Origin: a virus
Length of the DNA: 59,525 nt
Direction: 5' to 3' (one strand)
Virus record (IMG/VR): IMGVR_UViG_3300045988_114220
Below, one piece after another: positions 56-59,525 of this stretch (the stretch's first letter is position 1; each line of letters begins with the position of its first letter). The notes beneath the pieces are model-generated. The model was not told the origin of the DNA, ran no database searches, and saw only the letters and a list, made by a program, of their open reading frames with translations. Position numbers and translations under genes: made by a program.

Positions 56-203
56 GGGTATCACACAGCGCACAACACCAAAGGGGCATATTTCCGACCC
101 AAAACAGGAATTGTTAGGGAAAAGATTTAATTGCCGTGAAAACGCCGCAAGGACGGCGAGGCAGGAATGTCACGCACGGCGCAAAGGCTTAGGAGGAAAG
201 ATT
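1..203 (+). ncRNA. DGR TR 3' end (1..20) plus TR-RT spacer region, presumably part of the DGR RNA
   Basis: Continues the TR from 59375..59490 across the junction. It lies between avd/TR and the RT start at 204. An RBS AGGAGG at 191-196 precedes the RT ATG. Confidence 0.45.
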
Positions 204-10455: not shown

Positions 10456-10570
10456 TGTTTTTACCACCTTTATATTTAAAATATTATATCATAAATGCCC
10501 CGATTTGTGTAGCGGTTGCCCCCAAAATCGGCATTTCCGAAAAATTTTTTAAAAAAAATCCCGAAAAAAC

Positions 10571-28513: not shown

Positions 28514-28837
28514 ATGAAAAACATATCAGAACTCTCCGACCTTATGTTGGAAATTCTCGAAAGCTGCCCGGATTTTAAGTTAAATCCGCGAGGGATTGAG
28601 ATAATCAATGAGATTGCGGATTACGCCGAGCAGACAGACATATTCAAAGCAAACAAGGAACGCGGCGAAATCTTTGACGGGCAGACTGCAAAAAACATAT
28701 TTTGTTATATGCTCGACCGCGTTGTAAATGCACCAACGGTATTACATAGAAATTCGAGCGTAATTCTTATTATGCCGTTTGTAAGAAAAAGACTGAACGA
28801 AGAAATGGCAGGAGGAAACGATAATGTCAAAAATTAA
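28514..28837 (+). CDS. Hypothetical protein
   Basis: RBS AGGAGGACAATAAATATG. Confidence 0.45.
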   Translation: MKNISELSDLMLEILESCPDFKLNPRGIEIINEIADYAEQTDIFKANKERGEIFDGQTAKNIFCYMLDRVVNAPTVLHRNSSVILIMPFVRKRLNEEMAGGNDNVKN

Positions 28838-29948
28838 AATCACAGCAGAAAACAACATTCAGTTTGAAGCGGAGGGCGAAGACCGTTTCGTGCAGGAAGA
28901 ACGCAGAGCCTTTATGGAAATGCTCGCCGACAAAAACACGGTCAAGGCGGTTAAAGCGGTACAGGAAGCAATCACACCCCGCACGGTCCGCCCGGACGGG
29001 CTTGCAGAGGAAACAGTAGTCATTTACGACGACTACGGTATTCCCTCGATTATGAGGAAAATCAGCAAGGTAACAAACGCAGAGTTATTCGGCGGCGCAA
29101 ACAAAACGCACTCGGCGTTTATTATCGACGGCGAGGAATACGACGAGATTTATATTTCCGTATATCCGAACTGCGTTATCAACGGCCGCCCCTATTCTCT
29201 GCCTTATATGAAACCGTGGACGGACCTGACAAATGACGCGGCAGCAAAGGCGTGTTTCAGCAAGGGCGACGGTTGGCATTTAATGACGGCGGCAGAATGG
29301 GGACTCGTAGCGAATATCTGCAACCGGGACGGCACATATCCGCACGGCAACACGAAACACGGTAAATATCACGCAGACCCGTCCGAGGAGGGCGCTACAT
29401 TCGACGGAGGCACAGGCAAAACCCTCACGGGAAGCGGGCCGGCGACGTGGACGCACAATCACAAGCCGGACGGCATACACGACCTCTGCGGCAATGTGTG
29501 GGAAATGATTAGAGGCCTCCGCATTATTAACGGAAAAATCGAAGTCGCAAAGGACAATAACGCCGCACTTGACATTGACCTCACCGAAGCGGGCGACGAT
29601 TGGCAGCCTCTCACCGCTCCGAACGGTAAGCCGATAAATTTCTCCGTAGGCGACGATTTCAAATTCACAACGGACGAGCCGGAGGACGGCTACAACGGGA
29701 CCGAATGGGAAAATGTTTACTCGGATTTCGGATTTTCGGACGAACTCAAAGAACTTGCACTCTACCCCGGAGAAGACAACGCCTATCTGTATGTAGATAG
29801 CACCGAGGGCGAATATCTGCCGTATCGTGGTGGCAGCTGGAACAACGGGGCGAATGCGGGCGTGTTCTACACGAATTTGGATGGCGGGCGCACGGCTGCG
29901 GGCGGCGGCGTCGGTTTCCGCTCCGCTTATTTCAAAAAGAAAGACTGA
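28824..29948 (+). CDS. Remote DGR target protein with an FGE/C-type-lectin-fold C-terminus carrying VR1
   Basis: C-terminal YRGGSWNNGANAGVFYTNLDGGRTAAGGGVGFRSAYF. The GDGWHLMTAAEWG core is paralogous to the tail-fibre target 57822..58892. Confidence 0.85.
   Translation: MSKIKITAENNIQFEAEGEDRFVQEERRAFMEMLADKNTVKAVKAVQEAITPRTVRPDGLAEETVVIYDDYGIPSIMRKISKVTNAELFGGANKTHSAFIIDGEEYDEIYISVYPNCVINGRPYSLPYMKPWTDLTNDAAAKACFSKGDGWHLMTAAEWGLVANICNRDGTYPHGNTKHGKYHADPSEEGATFDGGTGKTLTGSGPATWTHNHKPDGIHDLCGNVWEMIRGLRIINGKIEVAKDNNAALDIDLTEAGDDWQPLTAPNGKPINFSVGDDFKFTTDEPEDGYNGTEWENVYSDFGFSDELKELALYPGEDNAYLYVDSTEGEYLPYRGGSWNNGANAGVFYTNLDGGRTAAGGGVGFRSAYFKKKD
29819..29928 (+). repeat. DGR variable repeat VR1
   Basis: Aligns to TR 59382..59490 with 14 mismatches, all at TR adenines. 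The 3' block cggtttccgctccgct is identical. Confidence 0.85.
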
Positions 29949-29970
29949 CAACTGATTACTGAAAAACTGT

Positions 29971-29993
29971 CGGGGCGGTCGAAAGACCGCTCC
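29971..29993 (+). other. GC-rich hairpin (GAAA loop) 43 nt downstream of VR1
   Basis: ggggcggtc-gaaa-gaccgctcc. Confidence 0.5.
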
Positions 29994-35948: not shown

Positions 35949-36452
35949 ATGCCAAGTTATACCAATAGCACAGCCCCGTGGGAACGACAAAAGGGAGAAA
36001 GCGAAAAGGCATACGAGGCGTTTTCCTTGTATCTCAAATTAGGGGCGGAACGCACAATTTCGGCGGTGGTAAAAGAGTTAAAAAAAAGTAGGAGTTTAAT
36101 CGACCGTTGGAAAGACCGTTGGGATTGGGAAGAAAGAGTACGCGAATACGACAACGACACCGAGCGGAAAGCAAAAAAAGAAGCGGAAAAAGGACTGCGG
36201 GAAATGTATACCCGACAGGTCAAGGTCGCTATGACAATGCAGGCCAAAGCGCTGAAAGCGTTGGATATGCTTGATGTTGAGGCTATGTCGCCGAAAGACA
36301 TAAAAGAGTATATCAAGATAGCGACGGACCTTGAACGCCTTAACCGCACTATGAGCGCAGGCAAGGCAGACGAAGCGGCGCAGAATACCGAGAGCATAGC
36401 GGATATGATAACCTCCGCTTATGAAAAGCGCAAAGGAGGCGGCGGAGTATGA
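35949..36452 (+). CDS. Terminase small subunit (putative)
   Basis: Immediately upstream of TerL. HTH-like N-terminus. RBS GGAGGGAGG. Confidence 0.55.
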   Translation: MPSYTNSTAPWERQKGESEKAYEAFSLYLKLGAERTISAVVKELKKSRSLIDRWKDRWDWEERVREYDNDTERKAKKEAEKGLREMYTRQVKVAMTMQAKALKALDMLDVEAMSPKDIKEYIKIATDLERLNRTMSAGKADEAAQNTESIADMITSAYEKRKGGGGV

Positions 36453-37855
36453 GTATGAGCCAAGAGGCGATTTTATTTTATGCCGACCACCCCGTAGAGT
36501 TTGTAGAAGACATTCTACACGCCAAGCCGGACGAACAGCAGGCCGCAATCCTGCGGAGCGTTGCCGCAAATCCTATGACGACGGTGCGAAGCGGACACGG
36601 TATCGGTAAATCGGCTGTTGAGGCGTGGATAGTCATTTGGTTTATGATTACTCGCCCTTATCCGAAAATACCTTGCACCGCACCGACACAACACCAATTA
36701 TTTGATATTTTGTGGGCGGAAATAAGCAAGTGGAAGCGTAACAACCCGGTACTCGAAAAGGAACTGATATGGACGAAAGAGAAAATCTACCTCAAAGGAC
36801 ACCAAGAGGAATGGTTTGCAGTCGCCCGAACAGCAACGACCCCGGACGCTTTGCAAGGCTTTCACGCTGAAAATGTGCTTTACATTATCGACGAGGCAAG
36901 CGGCGTAAAGGACGCTATTTTTGAGCCTGTACTCGGTGCGTTGTCAACCGAGGGCGCAAGGCTATTGATGTGCGGAAACCCGACGCAGCTTCAAGGCTTT
37001 TTCTATGAGAGCCATACGAAGAACAGAGCCTCGTACAGCACCTTTCACGTTGACGGGCGAAAGAGCAGCCGCGTATCAAAGGAATATGTTGACCGCATAA
37101 TCCGAATGTACGGCGAGGAGAGCAATGTTTTCCGTGTGCGTGTCGCCGGGGAATTCCCACTCGCCGAGGACGACGTGTTTATTCCGCTTTATCTCCTCGA
37201 AAAGTCCATTATGACGGAGTTTTCTCCCCGAAAAAACCCGAATATCCTCCGAATAGGTTGCGACGTAGCCCGTTTCGGCGACGACAAGACCGTAATCGGG
37301 ACGAGAGTTGACGAAAAGGTTACTTTGGAGAAGAAGCGCAACGGGCAGGACACTATGAAGACGGCGGACGACATTGTAATGCTTTACTACGACCTACTGA
37401 AACGCTACCCGAACTACAAGGGCAGTATTATTGTCACGGTGGACGACAGCGGCGTAGGCGGCGGCGTTGTGGACCGTTTGAAACAAATGCAGAGGAACAG
37501 CCCCAAGCTGCTCGCTCAAATGCTCGTCGTTCCCATTATTTTCGGTCAGCGGATAAAACACAAATACTATCACGACAGCACCACCTATATGATGTCGTGC
37601 GTAAAGGAACTGTTATCACCGACCGACCAAGACGGCAAGGAAAAGCCGATAGAACTGATTTTACCAAACGACGACGACCTCGTGGCTCAACTGTCGGGCA
37701 GAAAATACGCCCTCACGGAAAACAGCAAAGTCAAGGTCGAAAGCAAGGACGCTATGAAGAAGCGCGGTATGCCCTCCCCGGACGAGGGCGACTGCGTATT
37801 ACTGCTTTGTGTGCCTGTAAAGACACCGAAGACGAAAGGAGTACAAGCAAAATGA
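36449..37855 (+). CDS. Terminase large subunit
   Basis: Walker A RSGHGIGKS and Walker B LYIIDEASG. C-terminal nuclease domain. Confidence 0.85.
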   Translation: MSMSQEAILFYADHPVEFVEDILHAKPDEQQAAILRSVAANPMTTVRSGHGIGKSAVEAWIVIWFMITRPYPKIPCTAPTQHQLFDILWAEISKWKRNNPVLEKELIWTKEKIYLKGHQEEWFAVARTATTPDALQGFHAENVLYIIDEASGVKDAIFEPVLGALSTEGARLLMCGNPTQLQGFFYESHTKNRASYSTFHVDGRKSSRVSKEYVDRIIRMYGEESNVFRVRVAGEFPLAEDDVFIPLYLLEKSIMTEFSPRKNPNILRIGCDVARFGDDKTVIGTRVDEKVTLEKKRNGQDTMKTADDIVMLYYDLLKRYPNYKGSIIVTVDDSGVGGGVVDRLKQMQRNSPKLLAQMLVVPIIFGQRIKHKYYHDSTTYMMSCVKELLSPTDQDGKEKPIELILPNDDDLVAQLSGRKYALTENSKVKVESKDAMKKRGMPSPDEGDCVLLLCVPVKTPKTKGVQAK

Positions 37856-38299: not shown

Positions 38300-39856
38300 A
38301 TGAGCGAAAAGAAACTACCGAGGTACGGCGTAACGATTATAAAAGCGACGAACGAAAGCCCGGTAAAGAAGTCAAACAAAAGCGAGCAGCTTGACGCGAG
38401 AGAGGAACTCTCGGCGGCGGATTGGATTTCACCGCCGATTGACCTTATAGGGCTGAAAGAACTTGAAACAGAGTCCTCTATTCTGCCGCAATGTATCAGA
38501 GCCTACAAAAATAACATTGCGGGCTTTGGTATCGGCATTAGGTACAAAGACGACATTGAGGAAACGACCGAAATGGCGGCGGAGTACACGCGAGCGGAGG
38601 ACATCATTCAGTTGCTCAATTTGGAGCAGGACACCAAAGAGGTATTCGAGGACTTGATAGAGGCCCGCGAAACCTACGGTATCGCATATCTCGAAGTAAT
38701 CAGAAACCTCGCAGGCGAAGTTGTGCAGATTGAGTTTGTCAAGGACACCCCGACCGTAAAGAAAACAAAGCCATTAGAGCCGTATGTTGATACGGCGTTT
38801 TTCTATAAGGGCGAGGAAATTACCCGAAAGCGGAAATTTCGGAAGTATTGCCAAGACATTAACGGCAAGACGGTCTATTTTAAGGAATTCGGCGACCCTC
38901 GTGTTATGGATAAGCGCAACGGAGAGTATGTCGGAGAGGGCGGGACCGTTGACCTCGATAATCAAGCTAACGAGATTATGGAGTTTGCAATCGGCACAAT
39001 GCCATACGGCGAGGTGCGTTGGATAGGACAGATACTCGGCGTAGACGGTAGCCGCAGAGCCGAATATCTGAATAACAACTATTTCAAGAACGGCAGGCAT
39101 ACGCCGCTGATGATACTTATTAAGGGTGGAACGCTCACGGACGACTCTTTTACCAAACTCACGGAGTATATGAACGGTATCAAGGGCGAAGCCGGACAAC
39201 ACGCCTTTATCGTACTTGAAGCGGAGTCGGTAGACAACCGGGCAGGCTTTGACGACGAGCAAAAGCCGGAGATTGAGGTAAAGGACCTTGCCTCTATTCT
39301 GCAAAAAGACGAATTATTCCAAGACTACCTCGACAACAACCGCCGCAGGGTGCAGTCCTCTTTTCAGTTGCCCGATTTGTATGTCGGATATACAACCGAT
39401 TTCAACCGAGCGACCGCACAGACGGCAATGGAAGTCACGGAAAAGCAAGTATTTCAGCCGGAGCGGAAAAGCCTTGCGTGGGCTATCAACAACCGTCTGC
39501 TCAACGGCTACAATTTCAAGTATGTTGAAGCGTACTTCAAAGAGCCGGACATCAACAACCCTGACGATATGTATAAAATCCTCACCGTCGGCAACAACGC
39601 AGGCGGTCTGACACCAAACAAGGCGAAAGAGATTATCTATTCTTTGCTCGGCGATAATTACGAGCCATTCGACGAGGAGTGGGGCGATATTCCCCTCGCA
39701 TACGCAAAGACGCAACAGACGGCGAATTTCCCCGACCTCACGGCGCAGCTTGAAAAGCAGATAAAGAAAGCCGCCGGAGCGCAGGACGACGCTATCGTGG
39801 CAGTAATGAAAGAGGTGCGCTCCCTGCTCGTAAAAATGAGCGAGGAGGCGGAGTGA
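38300..39856 (+). CDS. Portal protein
   Basis: 518 aa. Sits between terminase and the Mu-F head morphogenesis gene. RBS AAGGAGGG. Confidence 0.7.
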   Translation: MSEKKLPRYGVTIIKATNESPVKKSNKSEQLDAREELSAADWISPPIDLIGLKELETESSILPQCIRAYKNNIAGFGIGIRYKDDIEETTEMAAEYTRAEDIIQLLNLEQDTKEVFEDLIEARETYGIAYLEVIRNLAGEVVQIEFVKDTPTVKKTKPLEPYVDTAFFYKGEEITRKRKFRKYCQDINGKTVYFKEFGDPRVMDKRNGEYVGEGGTVDLDNQANEIMEFAIGTMPYGEVRWIGQILGVDGSRRAEYLNNNYFKNGRHTPLMILIKGGTLTDDSFTKLTEYMNGIKGEAGQHAFIVLEAESVDNRAGFDDEQKPEIEVKDLASILQKDELFQDYLDNNRRRVQSSFQLPDLYVGYTTDFNRATAQTAMEVTEKQVFQPERKSLAWAINNRLLNGYNFKYVEAYFKEPDINNPDDMYKILTVGNNAGGLTPNKAKEIIYSLLGDNYEPFDEEWGDIPLAYAKTQQTANFPDLTAQLEKQIKKAAGAQDDAIVAVMKEVRSLLVKMSEEAE

Positions 39857-40920: not shown

Positions 40921-42219
40921 ATGAATAACGTGCAAAAGGCAATCGCAATTACCGACGCGAGAATATCGTTTGTGTCGCTCGTAGACAAGGCGGCCAATAA
41001 AAGGTCATTCCTCATTACGAAAGCGACAGACGGTAAAGCGCAATTCTCCACCTACGGCCGAATTATCAAAGCCGACGCAGAACATCACTTCATTACGGGC
41101 ATTGTGTATGAGCCGAACACCGAGGACGCTCACGGCAATTTTATGACCGAGGAAGAAATCACCAAAGCGGCATATTGGTACGCAAAGAACGGTAACAATG
41201 TGGACCTGCAACACGATTTTGAGGCGCTCGAAAACGCCGATGTTGTGGAAAGTTGGGTAGCAAAGGCGGATTTCAAAATCGGCGAGGAAACCGTGAAAAA
41301 AGGAACTTGGCTAATGACGGTCGAAGTAACTGATGATGATATTTGGGACGCTGTTCAGAAAGGCGAAATCACAGGCTTTTCTATGGGCGGCGTTGGAAAA
41401 TACGATACGGAGGACACGGATTTGGAGAATGTCGAAAAAGGCGGCACACCCGCCACAAACGAGCAGGCCGAACGCAAGGGCATTTTTAAGAAACTCGCCA
41501 CTATGTTTGGCTTTGATGTCGTCGAAAAGGGCGAAATGAAAGACGAATACGAGAAGCGCAATAAGGCGTCTTCTTTTTGGAACGCCTTTTATACCCTCGA
41601 AGACATACTCTACCGCTACGACTACTCGCAGGACCGTTGGAGTTTTGAAAACGACGAGCAGACCATTAGAGAGGCTCTGTTGGATTTCAATAACATTATC
41701 TCCGACATTCTCGCAGGAAGCGGTATTGCGAAATCGCTCGCCCCCTCAAAGGGCGAAATGAGCGCCGGAAGAAAAACGGCGCTTGAAAATATCCAAAAAT
41801 CAGTCGGCACAATTCTTGCCGACGCAAACAACGAAACGGAGGAAATCGAAATGACAAAGACCGAAATCGAGAAAATCGTTGCGGACGCTGTCGCAAAGAG
41901 CCTCAACGCTCCTGCGGCCGGCGAAGCAGCACCCGAAACCCCTGCGGCCCCGGAAACCGAAAATCCTGCCGCTCCCGCTGAAATCACCCCGGAGAGCGTT
42001 CAGAAAATGGTTGACGAGGCTGTGAAAAAGGCTCTCGCCCCGGAAACCGAGGAAAAGCCTCTTACCGCCGAGGACGTACAGAAGTGCGTCAATGAGGCTG
42101 TAAAAAAGGCCATTGAGCCTATTATGAAATCCCGCGCTCTGCCTACCGCTATCGGCGGCGACGGCGAGGGACAGGTCGAAAAATCCGGCGAACAGCACTA
42201 TCTCGCCGGAATTCTTTAA
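40921..42219 (+). CDS. Prohead protease-like N-domain (XkdF-like) fused to an Ala/Glu/Pro-rich scaffold-like C-terminus
   Basis: ISFVSLVDKAANKRSF at the N-terminus. Repeated VxKxVxEAVKKA units and PAAPETENPAAPAE low complexity. Confidence 0.5.
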   Translation: MNNVQKAIAITDARISFVSLVDKAANKRSFLITKATDGKAQFSTYGRIIKADAEHHFITGIVYEPNTEDAHGNFMTEEEITKAAYWYAKNGNNVDLQHDFEALENADVVESWVAKADFKIGEETVKKGTWLMTVEVTDDDIWDAVQKGEITGFSMGGVGKYDTEDTDLENVEKGGTPATNEQAERKGIFKKLATMFGFDVVEKGEMKDEYEKRNKASSFWNAFYTLEDILYRYDYSQDRWSFENDEQTIREALLDFNNIISDILAGSGIAKSLAPSKGEMSAGRKTALENIQKSVGTILADANNETEEIEMTKTEIEKIVADAVAKSLNAPAAGEAAPETPAAPETENPAAPAEITPESVQKMVDEAVKKALAPETEEKPLTAEDVQKCVNEAVKKAIEPIMKSRALPTAIGGDGEGQVEKSGEQHYLAGIL

Positions 42220-42240
42220 TTTACAAGGAGGACAAACACT

Positions 42241-43287
42241 ATGAACAACAATGCAAGTATTGTCAAAGACGCAATCAAGACCGGGACGCTCACAAACGGA
42301 TTGCTCAATCCTGAACAGTCCCGCCGCTTTTTGCAGCAGACTTTTGACGCAACCCCGCTCGGCGCACTCGTTCGTCACGAAATCCGCAGAGCAAAGACTG
42401 GCGAAATCGACAAAATCGGTATCGCTTCCCGTATCATTCGCCGCAAGACCGAGAATACCGACGACGGCTACCGCGCAAGCGTAAAGACCTCTGCGGTAAA
42501 CTACTCCACCACCGCAGTCAGACTGCCGTGGGAAATCACCGAGGAAACTCTCCGCGAGAATATCGAGGGCGAGGGCTTTGAGGCGACGGTCACCAACCTT
42601 ATGACCCGTCAGCTCGGCGTAGACCTTGAAGACCTCTATCTCAACGGCGACGAAAGCACAAAGGACGCAGCTGCTTTTTCGGCAACTGAGGCATATTCTG
42701 TCGGTGATAAGGTTACTTATGACGGCGGACTGTATGTGTTCACCGCTGCCCACACCGCCGGAGCGTGGAACTCGGCACAGGTTAAGGAACTCGGTGCGGC
42801 CGGTGATGTTGATTTCTTGAAAATCAATGACGGTTGGATTAAGCAGATTAAGGCAGGCGGACACATCTACGACGCTTCCTCTGCTTCCTCTATGAGCCTT
42901 GACATTTTCTACAAGACCCTTGCCGCTATGCCGAATAAGTACAACAACGGCAAACTCCGTTGGATTATGTCGCCTCACAGAGCGCAGGAATGGGAACTGT
43001 TCTTGATGAACAAAGTTATCGGCGCAGGCGGCGCAGTACCCGACAATGTATACACCGCTCCTGCAAAAATCCCCACCGTCGAAGTACCCGCCCTTTCGGA
43101 CGACGTTATCCTGCTCACCGACCCGAAAAACCTCATTGTGGTAAACACCTATGATGTTAAAATCCGCAAGACGAACGAGGGCAAGGAGGCAATTATGATG
43201 GATAAGCGCTTCTACACCACTCACCTTGACTTTGACCCGATTATCGAGGAAACCGACGCAACCGCAATCATCACCAATTTGAAGTAA
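42241..43287 (+). CDS. Major capsid protein
   Basis: 348 aa directly after the protease/scaffold gene. RBS AAGGAGGACAAACACTATG. Confidence 0.65.
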   Translation: MNNNASIVKDAIKTGTLTNGLLNPEQSRRFLQQTFDATPLGALVRHEIRRAKTGEIDKIGIASRIIRRKTENTDDGYRASVKTSAVNYSTTAVRLPWEITEETLRENIEGEGFEATVTNLMTRQLGVDLEDLYLNGDESTKDAAAFSATEAYSVGDKVTYDGGLYVFTAAHTAGAWNSAQVKELGAAGDVDFLKINDGWIKQIKAGGHIYDASSASSMSLDIFYKTLAAMPNKYNNGKLRWIMSPHRAQEWELFLMNKVIGAGGAVPDNVYTAPAKIPTVEVPALSDDVILLTDPKNLIVVNTYDVKIRKTNEGKEAIMMDKRFYTTHLDFDPIIEETDATAIITNLK

Positions 43288-43305
43288 AGGAGGAGGGGTG
43301 ACGCT

Positions 43306-43662
43306 ATGTATCATTTGAGAATGATTAAGGGTCGTTCATACACGAGCGACGCTTTCAGAGCAACTGCAAAATATCCCGACGTTTACACCGAGGACGAGCA
43401 GGCGGCAATCGCCGCACTCAATTCGGGACACTTTGCAAAAATCGAGGACGAAACCGTAACCGACACTCCCGGCACGGAGGACGAGGCTCACCTCGACAAA
43501 GAGGACCTTAACAAAATGACGGTCGCCAACCTCACCAAACTCGCAAAGGATATGGGGATTGACACAAAGGATATGAAGAAAGCCGAACTCATTGAGGCTA
43601 TCTCCGCGCAGAGCGTCGCCCCCGGCCCGGAAACTTCTGCCGATTACGGTGAGGAAGACTGA
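43306..43662 (+). CDS. Head-associated protein with SAP/Rho-N-like motif
   Basis: Contains LNKMTVANLTKLAKDMGIDTKDMKKAELIEAI. Confidence 0.4.
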   Translation: MYHLRMIKGRSYTSDAFRATAKYPDVYTEDEQAAIAALNSGHFAKIEDETVTDTPGTEDEAHLDKEDLNKMTVANLTKLAKDMGIDTKDMKKAELIEAISAQSVAPGPETSADYGEED

Positions 43663-45755: not shown

Positions 45756-47096
45756 ATGGCAGGCGGAAGATTTGACAAACTCGCAGGCAAGGTCAGACCC
45801 GGCACATATATCAACTTTGAAAGCACCCGTGTCGGAACTGTCGGAGTCAGCGAGAGGGGTATCGTAGTAATGCCGTTTATCGGTCACGACTACGGCCCTG
45901 CAAAAGAATTTATCCACATCACCAACGCCGCACCCGACGCAGAGAGCGCAAAACTCGGTCATAGCATTTATGACGACAACACCAATATTCTCCTCGTCCG
46001 TGAGGCGCTGAAAAATGCGTCGGAGGTGTATATCTACATTGCCGCCGCAGCAGGCACAAAGGCAACAGGAACGGGCGGCGGTGTAAAGGGTACGGCTCAT
46101 TACGGCGGCTCACGTGGCAACAAACTCGCTTATGCGATTGCTGCAAACCCGGTGAGCGGCTTTGACATCACCGTAACGCTCGACGGGGCGACCGTCAATC
46201 TTTATGAGGGCGTAGCGACTATTGCGGACCTCGTCGCAAAGAACGACGCATATATCACATTTGAGGCGGCGTCCGACTCGTCCACTCTTGCAGCCGTTGC
46301 GGGTGTAACCCTTGCGAACGGCGCAGACGGAGCAAGCGCCAACAATGATGTAACGGCATTCCTTGACGCAATCGAGGGCGTTAAGTTTAATGCGCTCTGC
46401 TTCCCGTCAACCGAAACTACACTCTGCGCCGCCGCAAAGAGCAAAATCAAGTATCTGCGCGAGAATGTCGGCAAGGGCGTAATTGGTGTTCTTGCGAACA
46501 CGGCGGCAGACTACGAGGGCATTATCAATGTTACGAACGGCGTTGTCGTAGACGGTCACACCCTCACAGCGGCGCAGGCAACCGCTTGGGTAGCCGGAGC
46601 GACCGCCGGAGCGACCTATGTGCAGAGCAACACCTACAAGCAGTACGACGGGGCGACGGCCATTAACGGCGTTAAGACTCACGAGGCGGCTGTTGCCGCT
46701 ATTCAGAACGGCGAATTTTTCTTCTCGTACTCCGAGGAGGGCAAAATCGTCGCAGAATACGACATTAACAGCCTTGTAACATTCACGGACAAGAAAGACG
46801 ACACCTACCGCAAGAACCGCGTTATCCGCGTGTTTGACACCTTTACGGAGAGTGTGCAGCTTAATTTCCCGCCCAATAAGTACCCGAACTCCCCGGACGG
46901 TTGGGATATTATGGAGGGTGTAGGACGCTCCATTCTCAAACAGTTTGCGGACGCAGGAGCAATCAAAAATGTTGACTACGACAACGATTTTCTCGTAGAC
47001 CGTGAAAAGAGTGTAGGCGACGAAACATATTTCAACGTCGGACTCGAAGCGGTTGACAGCGCCGAGAAACTCTACTTTACCGTAGCGACAAGATAA
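45756..47096 (+). CDS. Tail sheath protein (XkdK-like)
   Basis: N-terminal MAGGRFDKLAGKVRPGTYINFES. 446 aa, followed by the tube gene. Confidence 0.8.
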   Translation: MAGGRFDKLAGKVRPGTYINFESTRVGTVGVSERGIVVMPFIGHDYGPAKEFIHITNAAPDAESAKLGHSIYDDNTNILLVREALKNASEVYIYIAAAAGTKATGTGGGVKGTAHYGGSRGNKLAYAIAANPVSGFDITVTLDGATVNLYEGVATIADLVAKNDAYITFEAASDSSTLAAVAGVTLANGADGASANNDVTAFLDAIEGVKFNALCFPSTETTLCAAAKSKIKYLRENVGKGVIGVLANTAADYEGIINVTNGVVVDGHTLTAAQATAWVAGATAGATYVQSNTYKQYDGATAINGVKTHEAAVAAIQNGEFFFSYSEEGKIVAEYDINSLVTFTDKKDDTYRKNRVIRVFDTFTESVQLNFPPNKYPNSPDGWDIMEGVGRSILKQFADAGAIKNVDYDNDFLVDREKSVGDETYFNVGLEAVDSAEKLYFTVATR

Positions 47097-48263: not shown

Positions 48264-51200
48264 GTGGCAAGTATATCGGCAAAGTTTAAGCTGATTGATG
48301 AAATGTCCGCCAAACTCGACAAAATCGCACAGAGCGGGCGCTCCGCTCTATCCCAATGGGAAAAAGCGGGAGCGGCTATCGACGCGGCGTTTGACGGTGC
48401 GGCGACCGAAACCGCACAGACGGCGCAATCTATCAACACATCTACTGACGCAGTTGATAAATTCGGCGAAGCGACCGCACGAGCGGCAGACAAAGCCGAC
48501 GAATTCACGGCGGCAATGGACGAAATGGAGAACGCCACAAACGCCGCCTCCACCGCTTCTGATGAACTCGCCTCCGCCGGGAACGAAACCGAGGAGGCAC
48601 TCAACGGCGTTACAGAGTCGAGCGAACAGGCCGGCAAAAAGGTCAAGGACTATGGAGAGGAAAACGAGGAGGCTGGCCGAAAATCAAAGAAATTCGGTGA
48701 GGAAACAACCGAGGCTATTCAATCTATCGAGGACCTGCTAATTACTGTCGGCATTACAAAACTGCTCAAAGGTATCGGCGACGCTTTTGTAGACTGCGTG
48801 GGCGACGCTATCGAATTTGAAAGCGCAATCACGGGTGTTTATAAGACCGTTGACGGTACGCCGGAGCAGTTAGCGCAGATTTCGGACGAAGTAAAGGACC
48901 TTGCGCTGAACATACCCGCCACAACGACGGAAATTGCGGCAGTAGCAGAGGCCGCCGGACAGTTGGGCATTGCAACGGAAAATGTTATGGCGTTTTCAGA
49001 GGTTATGATAAACCTCGGTGAAGCAACAAACCTCACCTCTGACGAAGCAGCGTCGGCTCTTGCGAAGTTTACAAACATTACAGGTACATCAGCGGAAGAA
49101 TACGAAAACCTAGGCTCGACTATCGTTGCACTCGGTAACAATTTCGCCACAACAGAGGCAGATATTGTTGCAATGTCAACCCGTATGGCTTCCGCCGGAA
49201 CGCTCGCAGGAATGACGGAAAGCGACATTTTAGCACTTGCGGCGAGCCTGTCGTCCGTAGGTATTGAAGCAGACGCGGGCGGCTCGTCTATGTCAACGCT
49301 TATTTCAAAAATGCAGCTTGCGGTAGAAACCGGGAACGAGCAACTCGAACAGTTTGCGTCGGTTGCCGGGTATTCCGCAGACGAATTTACGAAAAAGTGG
49401 GGCGAGGACGCGGCACAAGCGCTGTATGCGTTTATCGCAGGACTGCAAGACACCGAGAGAAACGGAATGTCGGCGACGGCTGTACTCGACGATATGGGTA
49501 TCACCGAAATTCGGCTTTCCAACGCTATTAAGGCGCTGTCGAACAACAGCGACAGCCTCGGTCAAGCGCTCACATTTGCAAACGGCGCGTGGGAGGAAAA
49601 CACCGCACTTGCAACAGAAGCAAATACACGATATTCGACGCTCGAAAGCAAACTCGGAATGACAAAGAACGCCGCAAACAATTTGAGCATTGCTGTGGGT
49701 GATGTATTCACTCCGACGATTTCAAAGGCGGCAGGCGTAGGCCATTCGATTTTGACGGGGCTGACCGACTTTGTAAAGGCAAATCCGACCGTAGTAAAAG
49801 GCGTGGCGGCAATTACTATCGGTGTAGGCGCATTTACCGCCGCTATTGTGGCATATACCGTCGCAACAAAGGCGGCAAAGGTAGCGCAGGCGGCGCTGAA
49901 CGCCGTGCAACTCGCCAACCCCTACTACCTTGTAGGTGCGGCTATTGCGGCTGTTACAATAGGCATTGTTGCTTTTGCCGCTTCTATGTCGGACGCACAG
50001 AACAAAAGCCAAGAACTTTCCGCAGCTTCAAAGAAGCAGGAAGAACAACTCAAATCGCTTGAAGCGGAGTACAAAACCGCTTGCGACACATACGGTGAAA
50101 CCTCATATCAGGCGCAGGAATTGTCGTGGAAAATTGAGAGTCTTTCGGCAGAGTACGAAGCGAGCAAACAGACCGTACAGGAATTCTACGACTCACTCGA
50201 ACAAACCCACAAAGAGTATGAGGAGATGTGTGCAAGGCACGACGAAACTATCGAAAAAGCGAACAAAGAAAGTGCGAGCATTATGTCGCTTGCTTTCAGA
50301 CTTGAAACTCTCGCCGAAAAGACGAATGTTTCAGCCGGAGAGCAGGAAGAAATCCTCGCTATTATTCAGCGCCTCAATCAAGAAGTGCCGGACCTTTCGC
50401 TTTCATACGATAAGTTATCGCACAGTTTTTCCACATCTGCTGACGCAATAGTTAGTCTTGCAAAAGCCGAGGCGACATCGAGAAAGCAAAAGGCTCTTTA
50501 TGAGTCGCTTGTTGAGCAGATGTCGGAACTCGACGTACTCGAAGAGAAGAGAACGCAGGCGCTACAACAGCAAGCCTCGGAGCAGGAAAAAGTCAATGCG
50601 CTTGTAAACAGCTCAAAATACAAGCAAATGATGGACGAGGTCAAGAGCGTTGGAGACGAGGTATCGGGTAGAAATTACGCCTCGAAATGGGCGTCTTTCT
50701 CCGATGAAATCAATAAGGCTAACGAGGCTTTGGCAAAAGCCAACGGAGCAGTAGAACAAGCAACCGAAGACTACGACAACTGTTCAGATAAAATAGACGA
50801 GATAAAAGGAAAACTCGTTGAATTATCAGGCGGAATAGATGAGTCAAGCGACAAAATGCTTACCTACGAGCAGGCAGTCGAAAAATCGCTATCAAGCGTC
50901 AACGCGCAGATTACGGAACTCTGTCAAAAGTACGACGAGGCATACGAAGCGGCCCGCGAGAGTATCGACGGTCAAATAGGTTTGTTTGACAAAATCGTAG
51001 TCAAAGCGGAGTTGTCTATCGCCGATATGCAAGGGGCGTGGGAAAGCCAAATCCTGTACCTCACCTCTTATACGGAAAATCTCAAAAAGGCTATGGATTT
51101 CGGGCTTGATAGGTCGTTGGTAGAGAAATTGTCCGACGGCAGCGAGGAGAGCGCGGCTCAACTCGACACTATCATCAGCAAAGTCGAGAGCCTCGGAGGG

Positions 51201-52043
51201 AAAACCGAAGCGGCGAAGAAGTTTGTGGACGACTTTAACACAAAATTCCGAGAGGCAGAAAAGGCAAAGGACGATTTCGCCAAACAGGTAGCCGACATTG
51301 AAACGGATTTCACCGGGACAATGAAAACCCTCGAAGACCAACTCGACAGCACCATAGACGAAATGAATATGGAGGCGGACGCAGCTGCGGCGGCAAAGGC
51401 AACAATGCACGGCTATATCTCCGAGATAATCGCCGGAGGAAACTCGGCTGTTGCGGCGGCGGCAGACGCGGCGGCAAGAGTCAGAGCGGCTCTGCAATCG
51501 GGCGTTGCTACTACTGCGTCGGGCGGCGGTTGGGCCTCATACGCAGACGCGGCGGCAGCGGGCTATTCAAACATCCGAACGGCTTCTGAATTTGCAAGAG
51601 GTGGCGCAGACAAGAACAAATACGGCTCTTATCAAAACTACCTTGACGCAATGTATAAGCAGTATGGCGGATATGCAGAGGGTACAGATTACGCTGACGC
51701 AGGCCTGAAACTCGTCGGCGAACACGGTCCAGAACTCGTCGAATTTGCAGGAGGCGAAAAAGTCTACACCGCTGACGAAACCGAGGGTATTCTCGCAAGG
51801 TCGGCGGCAAAAGAATTCTACGCTACGCCGCAGGGCGATATAGGCAAGTCGGAAACGCCGAAAGACAGCGACGGTCCGAAGATTATCAGACTTGAAATCA
51901 ACGGAGCGGGCGCAATCGAGGTTGACGAGAATGTGGACGAGGCAACGGTCGTTGCAATTATGCAACAGCACCTCAAACCCGTACTCACGAGCATTGTCAA
52001 GCAGGAAATCTACGAGGAGGGAGATTTGTCCTATGATTATTAA
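48264..52043 (+). CDS. Tail tape measure protein
   Basis: 1259 aa, coiled-coil rich with central TM segments. GTG start after AAGGAGG. Confidence 0.85.
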   Translation: MASISAKFKLIDEMSAKLDKIAQSGRSALSQWEKAGAAIDAAFDGAATETAQTAQSINTSTDAVDKFGEATARAADKADEFTAAMDEMENATNAASTASDELASAGNETEEALNGVTESSEQAGKKVKDYGEENEEAGRKSKKFGEETTEAIQSIEDLLITVGITKLLKGIGDAFVDCVGDAIEFESAITGVYKTVDGTPEQLAQISDEVKDLALNIPATTTEIAAVAEAAGQLGIATENVMAFSEVMINLGEATNLTSDEAASALAKFTNITGTSAEEYENLGSTIVALGNNFATTEADIVAMSTRMASAGTLAGMTESDILALAASLSSVGIEADAGGSSMSTLISKMQLAVETGNEQLEQFASVAGYSADEFTKKWGEDAAQALYAFIAGLQDTERNGMSATAVLDDMGITEIRLSNAIKALSNNSDSLGQALTFANGAWEENTALATEANTRYSTLESKLGMTKNAANNLSIAVGDVFTPTISKAAGVGHSILTGLTDFVKANPTVVKGVAAITIGVGAFTAAIVAYTVATKAAKVAQAALNAVQLANPYYLVGAAIAAVTIGIVAFAASMSDAQNKSQELSAASKKQEEQLKSLEAEYKTACDTYGETSYQAQELSWKIESLSAEYEASKQTVQEFYDSLEQTHKEYEEMCARHDETIEKANKESASIMSLAFRLETLAEKTNVSAGEQEEILAIIQRLNQEVPDLSLSYDKLSHSFSTSADAIVSLAKAEATSRKQKALYESLVEQMSELDVLEEKRTQALQQQASEQEKVNALVNSSKYKQMMDEVKSVGDEVSGRNYASKWASFSDEINKANEALAKANGAVEQATEDYDNCSDKIDEIKGKLVELSGGIDESSDKMLTYEQAVEKSLSSVNAQITELCQKYDEAYEAARESIDGQIGLFDKIVVKAELSIADMQGAWESQILYLTSYTENLKKAMDFGLDRSLVEKLSDGSEESAAQLDTIISKVESLGGKTEAAKKFVDDFNTKFREAEKAKDDFAKQVADIETDFTGTMKTLEDQLDSTIDEMNMEADAAAAAKATMHGYISEIIAGGNSAVAAAADAAARVRAALQSGVATTASGGGWASYADAAAAGYSNIRTASEFARGGADKNKYGSYQNYLDAMYKQYGGYAEGTDYADAGLKLVGEHGPELVEFAGGEKVYTADETEGILARSAAKEFYATPQGDIGKSETPKDSDGPKIIRLEINGAGAIEVDENVDEATVVAIMQQHLKPVLTSIVKQEIYEEGDLSYDY

Positions 52044-54441: not shown

Positions 54442-54851
54442 TTATGGAAAGCGTATTTATCCCTATACCCGTAACGGAGGTTACGGAAGCACAGGAGAAA
54501 CCGTCGCTGACCTACAAACTCGACCTCGACAAAGGGCGAATAGTGGGGACGGTAGATGGACTCGAAGCAGTAAATCAAGCAATACGGAAAGCGATTATTA
54601 CACCCCGGTTTAAGTGCTTGATTTACGATAATCAGTATGGCAGCGAAATAGAGGCTACGGTGATAGACAAAGACGCTACGCCGGAACTCATAGAGGCTGT
54701 TATCCCCGGCTTTGTAAAAGACGCACTCAAACCCGACACTCGAATATTAAAGGTCTACGACTTTGCATTTGAGTTTAAGGGAGAGAGCGCGTATATCTTT
54801 TTCAGAGCCGACACTATTTTCGGCGAAACCGAATTCGAGGAGGTGATTTAA
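54438..54851 (+). CDS. Baseplate wedge protein (gp25/XkdS-like)
   Basis: Size and position before baseplate J. Confidence 0.45.
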   Translation: MIMESVFIPIPVTEVTEAQEKPSLTYKLDLDKGRIVGTVDGLEAVNQAIRKAIITPRFKCLIYDNQYGSEIEATVIDKDATPELIEAVIPGFVKDALKPDTRILKVYDFAFEFKGESAYIFFRADTIFGETEFEEVI

Positions 54852-55939
54852 TGTTTTCGGAAGAGTACACATACGAGCGACTTTTACAAGATGTCCTCGA
54901 CAATGCGCCGGAGGGCATAGACACCCGACAAGGCAGTATATTCTACGACGCTATATCAGGCGTTTTAATGAAAGTCGCAAAACTCTATGTCGATATTGAT
55001 ATGATTGCCGAACTTGTTTATATCGACAGCGCAACGGGCGACTACCTCGACCGCAAGGCGTCGGAACATTCCGTAACACGCCTGCCCGCCACCTGTGCGA
55101 AATACTATGTTACATTTGAGGGCGTAACCCCCGACCTCGGAGAGCGGTTTTATACCGACGGCCTGTATTTTGTGTTAAAGCAGGACGACGAGGAGCGGCA
55201 TTACCTCGAAGCGGAGGAAGCAGGAACGGGCGCAAACGGCGTTTACAGCGGTACGGCCGCAATCCCGGTTAATAATATACCAGGTCTAACCGCCGCAACA
55301 TTCGGCGCGGCAGCGGAACTCGGCTCGGACGAAGAAAGCGACGACGCACTCCGTGAAAGACTACGCGAGAAAATGTCGGGACCTGCAGAAAACGGAAACA
55401 GACAGCATTACAGAACGTGGTGCGAGGAGGTAGACGGCGTAGGCAGAGCGAGAATTATCCCGCTTTGGAACGGCCCGAACACGGTCAAGGGCATTATTAT
55501 TGACCCAAACGGTTTGCCGGCCGGCAATGCCGTCGTTGAGCGTGTGCAGGAATATATAGACCCGGACGAAGATAACGACGGAGAGGGCGACGGACTCGGC
55601 GAGGGTGTTGCAAATCTCGGCGCACATTTTACGGCGGTCAGCCCGACAAAATGCACTATAAATGTGTCGTTCAATGCCGTACTGACAGGCGGAGCAACAC
55701 AACAGCAGGCGGCTGAGGAAGCACGGACGGCTATCGCAAACTACCTTAAAGACCTCACGCTCAACACGGAGGACGAGGAGAATATTGTGGTGCGTATTTC
55801 CGCCGTCGGCGCTATTATCAACGGTCTATCTTCTATTATCGACTACAATAACCTTACCTTTAACGGCGAAACGTCAAACATTGAGCCGAGCAAGGAAGCG
55901 GTTGCGGTCGTTGGGGAGGTGACGGTGAGTGTATTATAG
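54851..55939 (+). CDS. Baseplate J-like protein (XkdT)
   Basis: 362 aa. Typical order. Confidence 0.7.
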   Translation: MFSEEYTYERLLQDVLDNAPEGIDTRQGSIFYDAISGVLMKVAKLYVDIDMIAELVYIDSATGDYLDRKASEHSVTRLPATCAKYYVTFEGVTPDLGERFYTDGLYFVLKQDDEERHYLEAEEAGTGANGVYSGTAAIPVNNIPGLTAATFGAAAELGSDEESDDALRERLREKMSGPAENGNRQHYRTWCEEVDGVGRARIIPLWNGPNTVKGIIIDPNGLPAGNAVVERVQEYIDPDEDNDGEGDGLGEGVANLGAHFTAVSPTKCTINVSFNAVLTGGATQQQAAEEARTAIANYLKDLTLNTEDEENIVVRISAVGAIINGLSSIIDYNNLTFNGETSNIEPSKEAVAVVGEVTVSVL

Positions 55940-56618
55940 CAATGGATTTGACAGCGCCTATGAGGAACTTATCACCTTTTACCCTGTTTTTTACCGTGAT
56001 GTTTTTGAAATGCGAGCGATACTCGAAGCCGAGGGAAAAATCATTGACGAAGCAACGGCGACGATAAACGGCGTAATCGAAAACTCATTCGTAGAGTCAG
56101 CGGACGAGGCAACGATAACACGACTCGAAGCGTGGTTACACTTACAGACAGACACGAGCCGCCCTTTGGAGGAGCGCAGGAGGCTCGTGTATTCGTTTTT
56201 TGTTGGCTTTGGTAAATTATCCGCCTCAAAGTTAAAAGAGGCCCTGCGAGCGTTCACGGGCGCTGACAGCAACATTTATTTCAAACCGACGGACGAAGCG
56301 GGCAACAACACGCTCATTATCGAAATGGGGCGCGGCGAAAATGCGGATATAAGTTATTCCGACATAAAAACCGTACTCGATAAAAAGATACCCGCCCACA
56401 TTGCCTATAAAGCGTTTGTTACCTACTCCGCCGCTATCGCAATATCAAAGCGGAGGGCGCATTACAAACACGAATACAGGCTATGCGGTTTAGAGCCGGA
56501 TATTGCCCTGCTCGGTAAAAAGCAAACGAAAACCTCGGTAACAGAGAGCGACGCAGCCGCAGAGAGTTACGGCACGGACTATCGTTACTGCGGAACGGCG
56601 TTGGCGGGCAATGTTTGA
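55929..56618 (+). CDS. XkdU/YmfQ-like tail protein
   Basis: Gene order. Alternative start codon. Confidence 0.45.
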   Translation: MYYSNGFDSAYEELITFYPVFYRDVFEMRAILEAEGKIIDEATATINGVIENSFVESADEATITRLEAWLHLQTDTSRPLEERRRLVYSFFVGFGKLSASKLKEALRAFTGADSNIYFKPTDEAGNNTLIIEMGRGENADISYSDIKTVLDKKIPAHIAYKAFVTYSAAIAISKRRAHYKHEYRLCGLEPDIALLGKKQTKTSVTESDAAAESYGTDYRYCGTALAGNV

Positions 56619-57821: not shown

Positions 57822-58892
57822 ATGAGTAATTTTGACCTTACGGGGCTTGCCGTTAGTTCGGTATTCCCGACAAACAAAGTAATCACCGACGACAAGGGAC
57901 TCCCCTCTGTTATGGTGTATATTCCGAAATTCAAGATGTCCGACGTTATCACGGGCGGAAGCGACAGCGTACACCCGGCGTTTATCGTAGACGGCGTTGA
58001 GAAGAACGGTATCTACATCTCGAAGTATCAGAACAAGGTATACGACGGTCGTGCGTACTCTCTCCCCGGAGAAGACCCGGCCACAGGTATCAACTTTGAT
58101 AATTCTATCGCCCGCTGCACCGCAAAGGGTGCGGGGTGGCACTTAATGACTGCTATGGAATGGGGCGCTATCGCCTTGTGGTGCAAGAAAAACGGTTGGT
58201 TGCCCTACGGCAATAACAACTACGGCAAGGACACACGCGAGAGCCTCTATAAAGCAGTACCGACGCTCTACGGCTCTGACGGCAAAATTAACCGCGTAGC
58301 AACAGGTACAGGCCCGGTCGAATGGAGTCATAATAAGCAGCTCGACGGTATATACGACCTCAACGGCAATGTATTTGAATGGGTCGGCGGTATGCGTCTT
58401 GTCAAGGGTGAATTACAAATCCTTGAAAACAACAACGCCGCAAACGGAAGCAACTCGCAGACGGCGGCCTCGGCGCAATGGAAAGCGATTGACGGAACAA
58501 CGGGCGAACTCATTACGCCGAACGGGACCGGCACAACCGAAAACTCCCTCAAACTTGATTATGTATCAAGCAAGTGGAAGTGGATTACGGGTACTATCTC
58601 CTCGGCGACTGACGAGGCGCGCGGCTGTACTTTTGCCAATGTGAGCGCAGACGATAATGTTTGCGCGGAGGCAAAAGGACTCCTTTACGCGATTGCAATG
58701 CTACCCGATAGCACCTCGTTCGATTACGAGGGCGACTACTTCTATGCCAACAACGGCAACGCAGAGCGGTCGCCGAGTCGTGGTGGCAGCTGGGGCTACG
58801 GGACGTATGCGGGCGTGGTCTACTCGGATTTGGGTCACGGGCGCGCGAGTACGAGCATCGACATCGGTTTCCGCTCCGCTTTTTATGATTAA
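57822..58892 (+). CDS. DGR target: tail-fibre/receptor-binding protein with FGE/C-type-lectin fold and C-terminal VR2
   Basis: C-terminal RGGSWGYGTYAGVVYSDLGHGRASTSIDIGFRSAFYD. It is the last tail gene before avd. Confidence 0.85.
   Translation: MSNFDLTGLAVSSVFPTNKVITDDKGLPSVMVYIPKFKMSDVITGGSDSVHPAFIVDGVEKNGIYISKYQNKVYDGRAYSLPGEDPATGINFDNSIARCTAKGAGWHLMTAMEWGAIALWCKKNGWLPYGNNNYGKDTRESLYKAVPTLYGSDGKINRVATGTGPVEWSHNKQLDGIYDLNGNVFEWVGGMRLVKGELQILENNNAANGSNSQTAASAQWKAIDGTTGELITPNGTGTTENSLKLDYVSSKWKWITGTISSATDEARGCTFANVSADDNVCAEAKGLLYAIAMLPDSTSFDYEGDYFYANNGNAERSPSRGGSWGYGTYAGVVYSDLGHGRASTSIDIGFRSAFYD
58765..58880 (+). repeat. DGR variable repeat VR2
   Basis: Aligns to TR 59375..59490 with about 15 adenine-site and 2 non-adenine mismatches. 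Confidence 0.85.
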
Positions 58893-58919
58893 CTGATAAC
58901 TGCATACTGAACGACTGAC

Positions 58920-58941
58920 GGGAGGGGCGGTAGCCCCTCTC
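58920..58941 (+). other. GC-rich hairpin 39 nt downstream of VR2
   Basis: gggaggggc-ggta-gcccctctc. Confidence 0.5.
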
Positions 58942-58964: not shown

Positions 58965-59351
58965 ATGGATATTGAGAAAATCAATTATGGCAAAGACACA
59001 ACCTCTTTTATTCTCAAAGAAAAGATTGCCGATATGATAGCATACGGCAAGCCCGCCGTAGACAACTTTCCGAGGAGAGAACGGCAGACCGCCGACGAGA
59101 TACGAGCAACTATGCTGAATATGCTCCGACTGTCTATCAAGATTGAGAAAAAGTATTATTCCAAAACCGACTTACGGGACCTTGATATAGAACTCGACAC
59201 CCTGCGTCATTTTATCCGCTTTGCGCAGGATAAGAGATACTATAACCCAAATGTCGCACCGCCTCTTGCTTTCAAAAAGTACGAGGTGTGGAGCAAAATG
59301 CTGAACGAAATCGGCAGGATAATCGGAGGCTATATGAAGTACCTCAAATAG
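58965..59351 (+). CDS. avd: DGR accessory variability determinant
   Basis: 128 aa basic helical protein between the target gene and TR. Confidence 0.8.
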   Translation: MDIEKINYGKDTTSFILKEKIADMIAYGKPAVDNFPRRERQTADEIRATMLNMLRLSIKIEKKYYSKTDLRDLDIELDTLRHFIRFAQDKRYYNPNVAPPLAFKKYEVWSKMLNEIGRIIGGYMKYLK

Positions 59352-59374
59352 TGCAAAGCGGGAATATGCCATTT

Positions 59375-59490
59375 AGCGGTCGCCGTATCGTGGTGGCAAC
59401 TGGAACAACGGGACGAATGCGGGCGTGTTCTACACGAATTTGAATAACGGGCGCACGAATACGAGCAACAACATCGGTTTCCGCTCCGCT
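59375..59490 (+). repeat. DGR template repeat (TR); its 3' end is duplicated at 1..20
   Basis: Adenine-rich invariant copy of both VRs. It lies between avd and the RT. Confidence 0.85.
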
Positions 59491-59525
59491 CTGCTGTTGT
59501 GCCGGGACAAGGTGAAAATCCTACG

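Follow-up and report, generated by a model that had tools for sequence, protein, structure and literature searches.

Organization of the locus

The stretch of viral DNA analysed here, record IMGVR_UViG_3300045988_114220 of IMG/VR (hereafter the window), has 59,525 nucleotides (nt), position 1 being its first letter, and carries a diversity-generating retroelement (DGR) whose parts lie at its two ends. At the right end, the last gene of the tail and baseplate module (target 1), which bears the first variable repeat (VR1) at its 3' end, is followed by avd, the accessory variability determinant, and by the template repeat (TR). The left end opens with the last 20 nt of the TR and continues with the spacer (Sp) and the gene of the reverse transcriptase (RT). 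Both ends share an exact direct repeat of 55 nt, composed of the last 20 nt of the TR and the first 35 nt of the spacer, and 59,470 nt of unique sequence are left after one copy is removed. In addition, a second variable repeat (VR2) is located in the interior of the window, in a paralogue of target 1 (target 2). The original prediction, made from the letters of this DNA, had placed avd and the TR at the window end and an RT with an IGNLTSQ motif at its start; all are present at the positions given in Table 1, the RT beginning with the ATG at 204 and encoding the motif at 846..866.

Table 1. Features of the retroelement and of the surrounding phage genome, in window coordinates.
Feature	Position	Strand	Description	Basis
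Target gene 1	57822..58892	+	356 aa, C-type lectin (CLec)/formylglycine-generating enzyme (FGE)-type DGR variable protein, last gene of tail/baseplate module	5VF4 match; PHROG 2889
VR1	58765..58880	+	3' end of target 1; 116 nt	Comparison with TR, 17 mismatches
Array after VR1	58891..58918	+	Four A(A/T)CTG motifs, 7-8 nt apart	Pattern search
Hairpin after VR1	58920..58941	+	GC-rich 9-bp inverted repeat, GGTA (GRNA) loop, 39 nt after VR1	Fold
avd	58965..59351	+	Accessory variability determinant, 128 aa	Pfam bAvd, E 5e-23; NCBIfam DivGenRetAVD
Stop-type duplex, 5' strand	59359..59370	+	CGGGAAUAUGCC, just upstream of TR	Minimum-free-energy (MFE) fold and covariation
TR	59375..59490	+	Template repeat, 116 nt, 29 adenines	Match to VR1 and VR2
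Terminal direct repeat, right copy	59471..59525	.		Exact identity with 1..55
Terminal direct repeat, left copy	1..55	.		Exact identity with 59471..59525
Spacer RNA	21..203	+	Between TR and RT, 183 nt	First 35 nt also at 59491..59525
Stem-loop	22..80	+	UACG tetraloop at 52..55	Fold and covariation
Invariant AAAGG	80..84	+		Directly 5' of stop-type duplex strand
Stop-type duplex, spacer strand	85..96	+	GGCAUAUUUCCG	Pairs with 59359..59370
Stem-loop, then AAAAG	98..119	+		Fold and alignment
A-rich single strand	120..132	+		Fold and alignment
Long composite stem	133..180	+		Fold and alignment
Ribosome-binding site (RBS)	191..196	+		AGGAGG
RT gene	204..1340	+	DGR reverse transcriptase, 378 aa	RVT_1, E 2.4e-24; best PDB match 8ub7, E 1.8e-48
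Target gene 2	28824..29948	+	374 aa, paralogue of target 1	BLASTP, E 3e-64; PHROG 2889
VR2	29818..29927	+	Second variable repeat, 110 nt	Comparison with TR 59381..59490, 14 mismatches
Array after VR2	29943..29970	+	Four ACTG motifs, 7-8 nt apart	Pattern search
Hairpin after VR2	29972..29993	+	GC-rich 9-bp inverted repeat, GAAA (GRNA) loop, 44 nt after VR2	Fold
Endolysin	2053..3672
Large serine integrase	8177..9769	-		PHROG 95, E 1e-100
Repressor-like regulator	9853..10467	-
Terminase	36449..37855			Window annotation
Portal	38300..39856			Window annotation
Tail sheath	45756..47096			Window annotation
Tape measure	48264..52043			Window annotation
Baseplate proteins	54851..56618			Window annotation

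Contiguity of the contig ends

An overlap of 55 nt is typical of a de Bruijn assembly, where it is left when a circular path is written out, as 55 is a common largest k-mer of assemblers. The overlap of the window is exact. Of its 55 nt, 35 are spacer sequence that does not recur elsewhere in the window, and the TR/VR repeats, whose longest exact matches are shorter than 55 nt, therefore do not account for it. The claim that this overlap makes the two ends contiguous, already contained in the original prediction, is borne out by alignments to other assemblies, by the gene arrangement of related loci and by an RNA helix that crosses the junction. An ENA scaffold, L138 (ena:ERZ28595552, scaffold_374), with 59,474 nt, 4 nt above the unique sequence of the window, carries the cassette internally and is 100% identical through the junction over the 9,137 nt of the scaffold that were compared; it appears to represent the same phage in another rotation, with a different start point. 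The IMG/VR contig L001 (54,976 nt) aligns without gaps at 97.3% identity over 10,022 nt across the junction. Fourteen public contigs encode an identical RT protein, and in L137, L138, L139 and L141, which have this RT, the order baseplate, target, avd, RT and lysis genes is entirely internal to the contig. Moreover, avd shares the strand of the RT and is placed 300-400 nt upstream of it in 101 related loci, the distance being 322 nt in the closed window, and the helix formed by 59359..59370 and 85..96, which is conserved in relatives, links both window ends.

A repeat-induced misassembly, in which the RT end would have been joined to a foreign avd-TR end through the TR/VR repeats, could be suspected from the fact that the overlap starts inside the TR and that its 20 TR-derived nucleotides hardly differ from the ends of VR1 and VR2. 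The unique part of the overlap and the shortness of the exact TR/VR matches speak against it, as do the same adjacency in several independent assemblies and in the 101 relatives and the RNA covariation tying both sides, which render this explanation extremely improbable. The other alternative is a linear virion DNA with true short terminal repeats of 55 nt, avd-TR and RT being joined only after circularization, in concatemers or in the prophage. Such direct repeats exist in some tailed phages, and the sequence by itself reads alike for a k-mer overlap and for a real terminal repeat of 55 nt. We consider it unlikely all the same, given that the length of the repeat is that of the k-mer mentioned above, that L138 starts elsewhere at almost the same total length, and that the junction is internal in L001, L137 and L139 too. 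A genome end inside a covarying RNA stem-loop would also be odd, and the functional unit would be the same even if the repeat were genuine.

Regarding the "circular phage genome" of the original prediction, the closure of the assembly is upheld, whereas the form of the template is a matter of assembly-level inference, as a circular, a circularly permuted or a concatemeric template would fit equally well. The split look of the cassette is an artefact of the position at which the contig was cut: because the cut falls inside the first stem-loop of the spacer, one functional transcript is divided between the window ends. The RT region had no megablast match among 50,697 deposited phage records, and by this comparison the phage appears to be one without a close deposited relative.

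Consequences for linear annotation

The mechanical RT open reading frame (ORF), 27..1340, starts at a TTG and had been described as an artificial N-terminal extension due to linearization. The over-extension is real, whereas the cause is another one. In the rotated genome the RT frame is open back to the stop codon at 59374, and the mechanical ORF would start at the GTG at 59425; the frame is thus extended because it stays open through the spacer into the TR, and linearization shortens the artefact. The same over-extension is present in the public RT coding sequence (437 aa) of Faecalibacterium phage FP_Lagaffe (L144 3303..4616), which runs back through the spacer, and in Clostridium phage Saumur (L143 3096..3440) the public annotation has laid two "hypothetical protein" coding sequences over the TR/spacer RNA region.

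The cassette had also been called complete, which holds for avd, the TR and the RT; completeness requires in addition the targets with VR1 and VR2, which the original prediction did not contain and which are present in the window. Its expectation that the unit would escape a linear annotation is reasonable. The program MyDGR searches for TR/VR pairs 10 kb to each side of the RT (PMC6602519); in linear coordinates the TR, VR1 and VR2 are about 58, 57.5 and 28.5 kb away from the RT, which has 203 nt to its left, and no TR/VR pair of the linear window is within that range. A DGR with two targets would go unrecognized in this contig if it were handled as linear, and DGRs will be undercounted, and their numbers of targets misjudged, in surveys that leave circular viral contigs unrotated and unwrapped.

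Reverse transcriptase and Avd

The RT, whose ATG is preceded by the AGGAGG of the RBS, has the two motifs of the DGR clade, [I/L/V]GxxxSQ and YxDD, in the form of IGNLTSQ and of YMDD (942..953). Among solved structures, its best match is the 328-aa RT of PDB entry 8ub7 (168.7 bits), with the common stretch PIGxLTSQLFAN; the next best solved RTs, of group II and retron types, trail by about 90 bits (at most 76.9 bits, E about 1e-20). The entry is listed just as "Reverse transcriptase", and we take it to be the bRT of the Bordetella phage studied in bioRxiv 10.1101/2023.10.23.563531. By these score gaps and motifs, the enzyme is placed among the RTs of the DGR kind.

The accessory gene that adjoins the TR and RT in DGRs, either avd or an HRDC gene, is here avd, as its product exceeds the cut-offs of both NCBIfam DivGenRetAVD (91.1 bits versus 80) and Pfam bAvd (82 bits versus 40); Avd had no match when PDB sequences were searched with it directly. 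The match to the presumed bRT, the two Avd families and the concentration of TR/VR mismatches at adenines support the avd-TR-RT unit of the original prediction, and the checks it had proposed, an RT profile and a search for such mismatches, gave the RVT_1 match of Table 1 and the two repeats described below.

Other families of RTs were also considered. A group II intron, retron or antiviral defence RT near an unrelated repeat would be in line with the best NCBIfam match of the protein, group_II_RT_mat (TIGR04416, 131 bits), and with its weak matches to Drt3a (67 bits), the retron St85 RT (43.7 bits) and AbiA (23.7 bits), but all of these stay far under the respective cut-offs of 300, 200, 235 and 250 bits, and the Drt2, Drt4 and Drt5 models score below 40 bits. 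At gathering thresholds, Rfam recognizes no family in the whole window, group II intron and retron RNAs included, the DGR spacer RNA being likewise unmatched. Considering also the margin of the 8ub7 match and the joint presence of avd, of a TR with mismatches at its adenines and of the spacer RNA, the probability of a non-DGR enzyme is negligible.

Template repeat, variable repeats and target proteins

Fifteen of the 17 mismatches between VR1 and the TR fall on TR adenines and two on thymines. VR2, which was found by scanning the window for sequences that match the TR at its non-adenine positions and lies 29.5 kb from it, differs at adenines only (14/14). The last 17 nt of the TR (UCGGUUUCCGCUCCGCU) are free of adenine and identical in the TR and both VRs, the sequences diverging directly after them. 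All 29 adenines of the TR occupy codon position 1 or 2, affecting 18 variable codons, ten of which are AAY; none of the variable codons can mutate to a stop, and the theoretical repertoire amounts to approximately 10^16.6 protein variants. The stop codon of each target follows 12-21 nt after the end of its VR.

Target 1 aligns with TaqVP (PDB 5VF4) over residues 21-354, nearly its full length, with an E value of 2.6e-46, and has a sub-threshold match to the Pfam family FGE-sulfatase. According to bioRxiv 10.1101/432187, TaqVP is the DGR variable protein of Thermus aquaticus, having an FGE-type C-type lectin fold with a C-terminal VR, and the sequence match settles the predicted fold of target 1. 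The protein thus has the attributes of a ligand-binding scaffold diversified by DGRs, namely a CLec or immunoglobulin (Ig) fold, a C-terminal VR and AAY codons. It is probably a receptor-binding protein of the tail. TaqVP is a cellular protein, thought to be intracellular; target 1, instead, ends a phage tail module and has a second copy in the replication region.

This second copy, target 2, shares 37% identity with target 1 and has a distinct N-terminal stretch of about 57 aa. Its neighbours are genes for an SbcCD-like nuclease, a protein similar to phosphoadenosine phosphosulfate (PAPS) reductase, a MazG-like protein, a single-stranded DNA-binding protein (SSB) and a Holliday junction resolvase, and no avd is present within 3 kb of its orthologues in other phages. 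The locus is a well-supported case of a single TR diversifying two paralogous TaqVP-like proteins, one of which is encoded among replication genes.

Evidence of activity

Contigs with the identical RT share the TR and can differ at VR1. Over 6,961 aligned nt, L139, from Logan run SRR27452099, departs from the window at 22 positions; VR1 accounts for 20 of these and the TR for none, which corresponds to 99.97% identity outside VR1 and 83% inside it. The TR has no differences among the contigs with identical RT, where VR1 differs at 20-21 sites, and in the alleles other than that of the window and L138 the mismatches of VR1 to the TR are all at adenines (12/12 and 16/16). A third VR1 allele is carried by L137 and L141, and 24 of the 29 adenine positions vary across the three alleles.

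In the lineage of L001, 97% identical to the window, the TR itself differs at five sites from that of the window, and the VRs of this lineage, VR1 in L001 and VR2 in L082 (same contig) and L081, carry the L001-type bases at non-adenine sites. The presence of these lineage-specific bases in both VRs means that information from the TR has been copied into both targets. The mismatches of these VRs to their TR are again at adenines in 20/20, 14/15 and 13/14 cases, the exception being the first aligned base of VR2, and the VR2 alleles of the window, L081 and L082 differ from one another. In the alleles close to the window, the substitutions at adenines are strongly skewed to G (10/15, 13/14, 10/12 and 12/16), owing to either a bias of the enzyme or selection.

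By these comparisons, the DGR looks active, with mutagenic retrohoming visible at the population level. A relic of intact appearance, whose VR differences would be old fixed polymorphisms, could be argued from the comparison being one of consensus assemblies alone and from the lean towards G, which could reflect selection on old alleles. The pattern of L139, almost identical everywhere except in VR1 and with an unchanged TR, requires recent, localized and adenine-specific change, and the RT, Avd and spacer RNA are intact and conserved; a relic is accordingly very improbable.

Structure of the spacer RNA across the cut

The spacer shows strong conservation among relatives with RTs of only 55-80% identity. 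Its structure, assembled from the MFE fold, RNAalifold and inspection, was tested on 28 sequences. The 53 pairs proposed are formed in 86.5% of cells, versus 41-48% when the partners are slid by 1-3 columns; 42 pairs are changed on both sides, versus 21-27 in the slid controls, and the covariation score observed exceeded that of every one of 500 column shuffles. The best helix is the one joining the strand upstream of the TR to the spacer, with 12 pairs, nine of them with compensatory changes, and 94.9% of cells paired in the 28 relatives, and it may be regarded as an analogue of the avd:Sp "cPRT Stop" duplex known from the Bordetella phage BPP-1.

Upstream of this duplex strand stands the stem-loop 22..80, whose basal helices are compensatory in 5/6 and 5/5 pairs and whose apical part aligns poorly (69.5% paired); with its UACG loop it corresponds to the UNCG/GNRA-capped stem-loop of BPP-1-type RNAs. 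The covarying helix of 22..29 with 73..80 ends in a near-invariant U-A pair, and the near-invariant adenosines 80-82, 3-5 nt 5' of the stop-type duplex, would be candidates for priming by their position. Downstream, the duplex is followed by a stem-loop and adenosines, as in BPP-1-type RNAs. Two other pairings were tried and rejected. A template:primer duplex between GCUCC of the TR and GGGGC of the spacer was returned by RNAalifold with the spacer alone, the same Gs being better explained by the covarying stop-type duplex; pairing of the invariant AAA to UUU at the 3' end of the TR would have the wrong orientation, as checked by hand.

The work in bioRxiv 10.1101/2023.10.23.563531 describes, for the BPP-1 ribonucleoprotein solved by cryo-EM, an Avd-binding stem-loop, a primer strand, the "cPRT Stop" duplex, a stem-loop with A-minor adenosines, a thumb ring and an RT-binding stem. 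The RNA of the window has the same order of elements: UNCG stem-loop, duplex between the region upstream of the TR and the spacer, short stem-loop with adenosines, single strand and long 3' stem. This comparison supports the view that phages of gut Clostridia have the architecture of the spacer RNA that was solved for the Bordetella phage.

Target-side elements after the variable repeats

As the TR and the VRs are identical to the end of the homology, the VR must be told from the TR by something further downstream, a case that was anticipated by Wu et al. 2018 (PMC5758913). Two elements follow both VRs and are absent after the TR: an array of CTG-containing motifs and a GC-rich hairpin. [quoted passage not shown] A hairpin or cruciform is needed for efficient retrohoming, as stated in the text available from Guo et al. 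2011 (PMC3240598). The hairpin at 58920..58941 possibly serves also as the terminator of target 1.

Regarding the arrays, their pattern has four matches in the window, all of them after the two VRs, versus 0.01 expected. In the related loci (1.35 Mb), 66 of 156 such arrays are located within 40 nt after a VR end, and arrays of three or four motifs are kept in relatives down to approximately 40% RT identity, including the cultured phages Saumur (L143 2547..2571) and FP_Lagaffe (L144 2629..2647). The idea that the ACTGA/TAACTGA arrays are stop codons in all frames was discarded, because distant relatives keep the CTG but have CTGG, which gives no stop. No mention of such an array was found in the searched text of Guo et al. 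2011 or Wu et al. 2018, in a literature search that was not exhaustive. It is tentatively proposed, from its conservation, that the A(A/T)CTG array may be an undescribed target-side recognition element of a large DGR lineage, an idea that we find possible rather than probable; the RT-Avd ribonucleoprotein or a host factor, for example, could bind to it. If so, the array would also let one TR serve a target as remote as that of VR2. The conserved array is testable in the cultured relatives Saumur and FP_Lagaffe.

Interpretation and proposed mechanism

We are highly confident in reading the locus as a canonical, active DGR of a temperate contractile-tailed phage of gut Clostridia, with the order target 1 (VR1)-avd-TR-spacer-RT, which was cut inside the spacer when the circular path was written out. 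Some observations weigh against this reading or parts of it. As for the junction, its exact confirmation comes from a single ENA scaffold, L138, possibly from the same sample as the window, so that it is an independent assembly and rotation and not necessarily independent DNA, and an exact 95-nt junction probe had no match in IMG/VR or JGI metagenome contigs. As for the repeats, VR1 differs at two TR thymines, 58776 (T to A) and 58818 (T to G), in the allele of the window and L138 only, the other VR1 alleles matching the TR at both sites; these changes are due either to the RT, as rare errors outside adenines, or to ordinary point mutation, and occasional non-adenine changes are known in DGRs, according to Wu et al. 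2018 (PMC5758913). Moreover, activity was deduced from differences between assemblies. The hairpins, at 39 and 44 nt from the VRs, are just beyond the 4-34 bp range of Guo et al. (PMC3240598). In the case of the RNA, the structure tested derives in part from the window sequence, which favours it somewhat, and the GCUCC/GGGGC pairing that RNAalifold gave as a template:primer duplex overlaps the better-supported stop-type duplex.

By analogy with BPP-1, the canonical DGR proposed here would act as follows. The RNA from the end of avd through the TR and the spacer would fold around the RT-Avd complex, and the spacer would prime the reverse transcription of the TR in cis, possibly from one of the adenosines mentioned above, with misincorporation opposite adenines. 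The mutagenized cDNA would then replace the homologous VR at the 3' end of the two genes of C-type lectin fold, the adjacent VR1 and the distant VR2. The outcome would be variation at the 18 codons within the repertoire calculated above, with no possible stop.

Comparison with known systems

The BPP-1 DGR (mtd-avd-TR-brt) has the same gene order as the cassette of the window, a homologous RT, an accessory protein of the Avd family, a VR at the 3' end of a gene with CLec fold, and a GC hairpin with GRNA loop after the VR and none after the TR. In contrast to BPP-1, the window has two targets, one of them remote, and a TR and VRs identical to the end of the homology, with no distinct IMH and IMH*; its hairpin is 39-44 nt from the VR with the A(A/T)CTG array in between, its spacer has 183 nt instead of 140 nt, and the host of the phage is a Gram-positive gut anaerobe.

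The closest cultured relatives are Clostridium phage Saumur (ON453901) and Faecalibacterium phage FP_Lagaffe (MG711461), whose RTs are 59% and 52% identical to that of the window, respectively. Both show the same synteny, with baseplate genes, small ORFs, a target of about 360 aa, Avd, TR, RT, two small ORFs and endolysin, and both have the CTG-repeat array and the GC hairpin after the VR; they are nevertheless different phages, the RT region of the window having no megablast match among the deposited phage records.

Other phage DGRs with two targets have also been reported to use one TR for two VRs (Wu et al. 2018, PMC5758913; Baykov et al. 2023, PMC10743442), and non-adjacent targets within 50 kb are reported as common in phage-associated DGRs. 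The targets of the window are paralogues of the same architecture, not of the CLec-plus-Ig "tentaclin" type of Baykov et al. 2023 (PMC10743442). Multi-target and remote-target phage DGRs being already documented, only the A(A/T)CTG array after the VRs seems to be undescribed.

Phage genome context

The DGR is flanked by the tail module and the lysis genes. The integrase, the repressor-like gene and the occurrence of relatives embedded in long contigs of Clostridia metagenome-assembled genomes (MAGs), such as L097 within a contig of 224,946 nt, point to a temperate phage of gut Clostridia. A tRNA scan found none.

Some side observations concern the neighbouring genes. The endolysin has internal direct repeats, 3123..3269 and 3348..3491, about 75% identical, which correspond to tandem LysM domains. 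The 1,280-aa ORF at 14343..18185 matches SbcD-like (residues 1-409) and SbcC-like (residues 257-1279) families and is apparently, by these matches, a fused SbcCD nuclease. Finally, the 504-aa ORF on the minus strand at 41800..43314 has no PHROG match and lies amid the plus-strand head module, where the major capsid gene is expected; it is probably spurious, hiding the real gene or genes.

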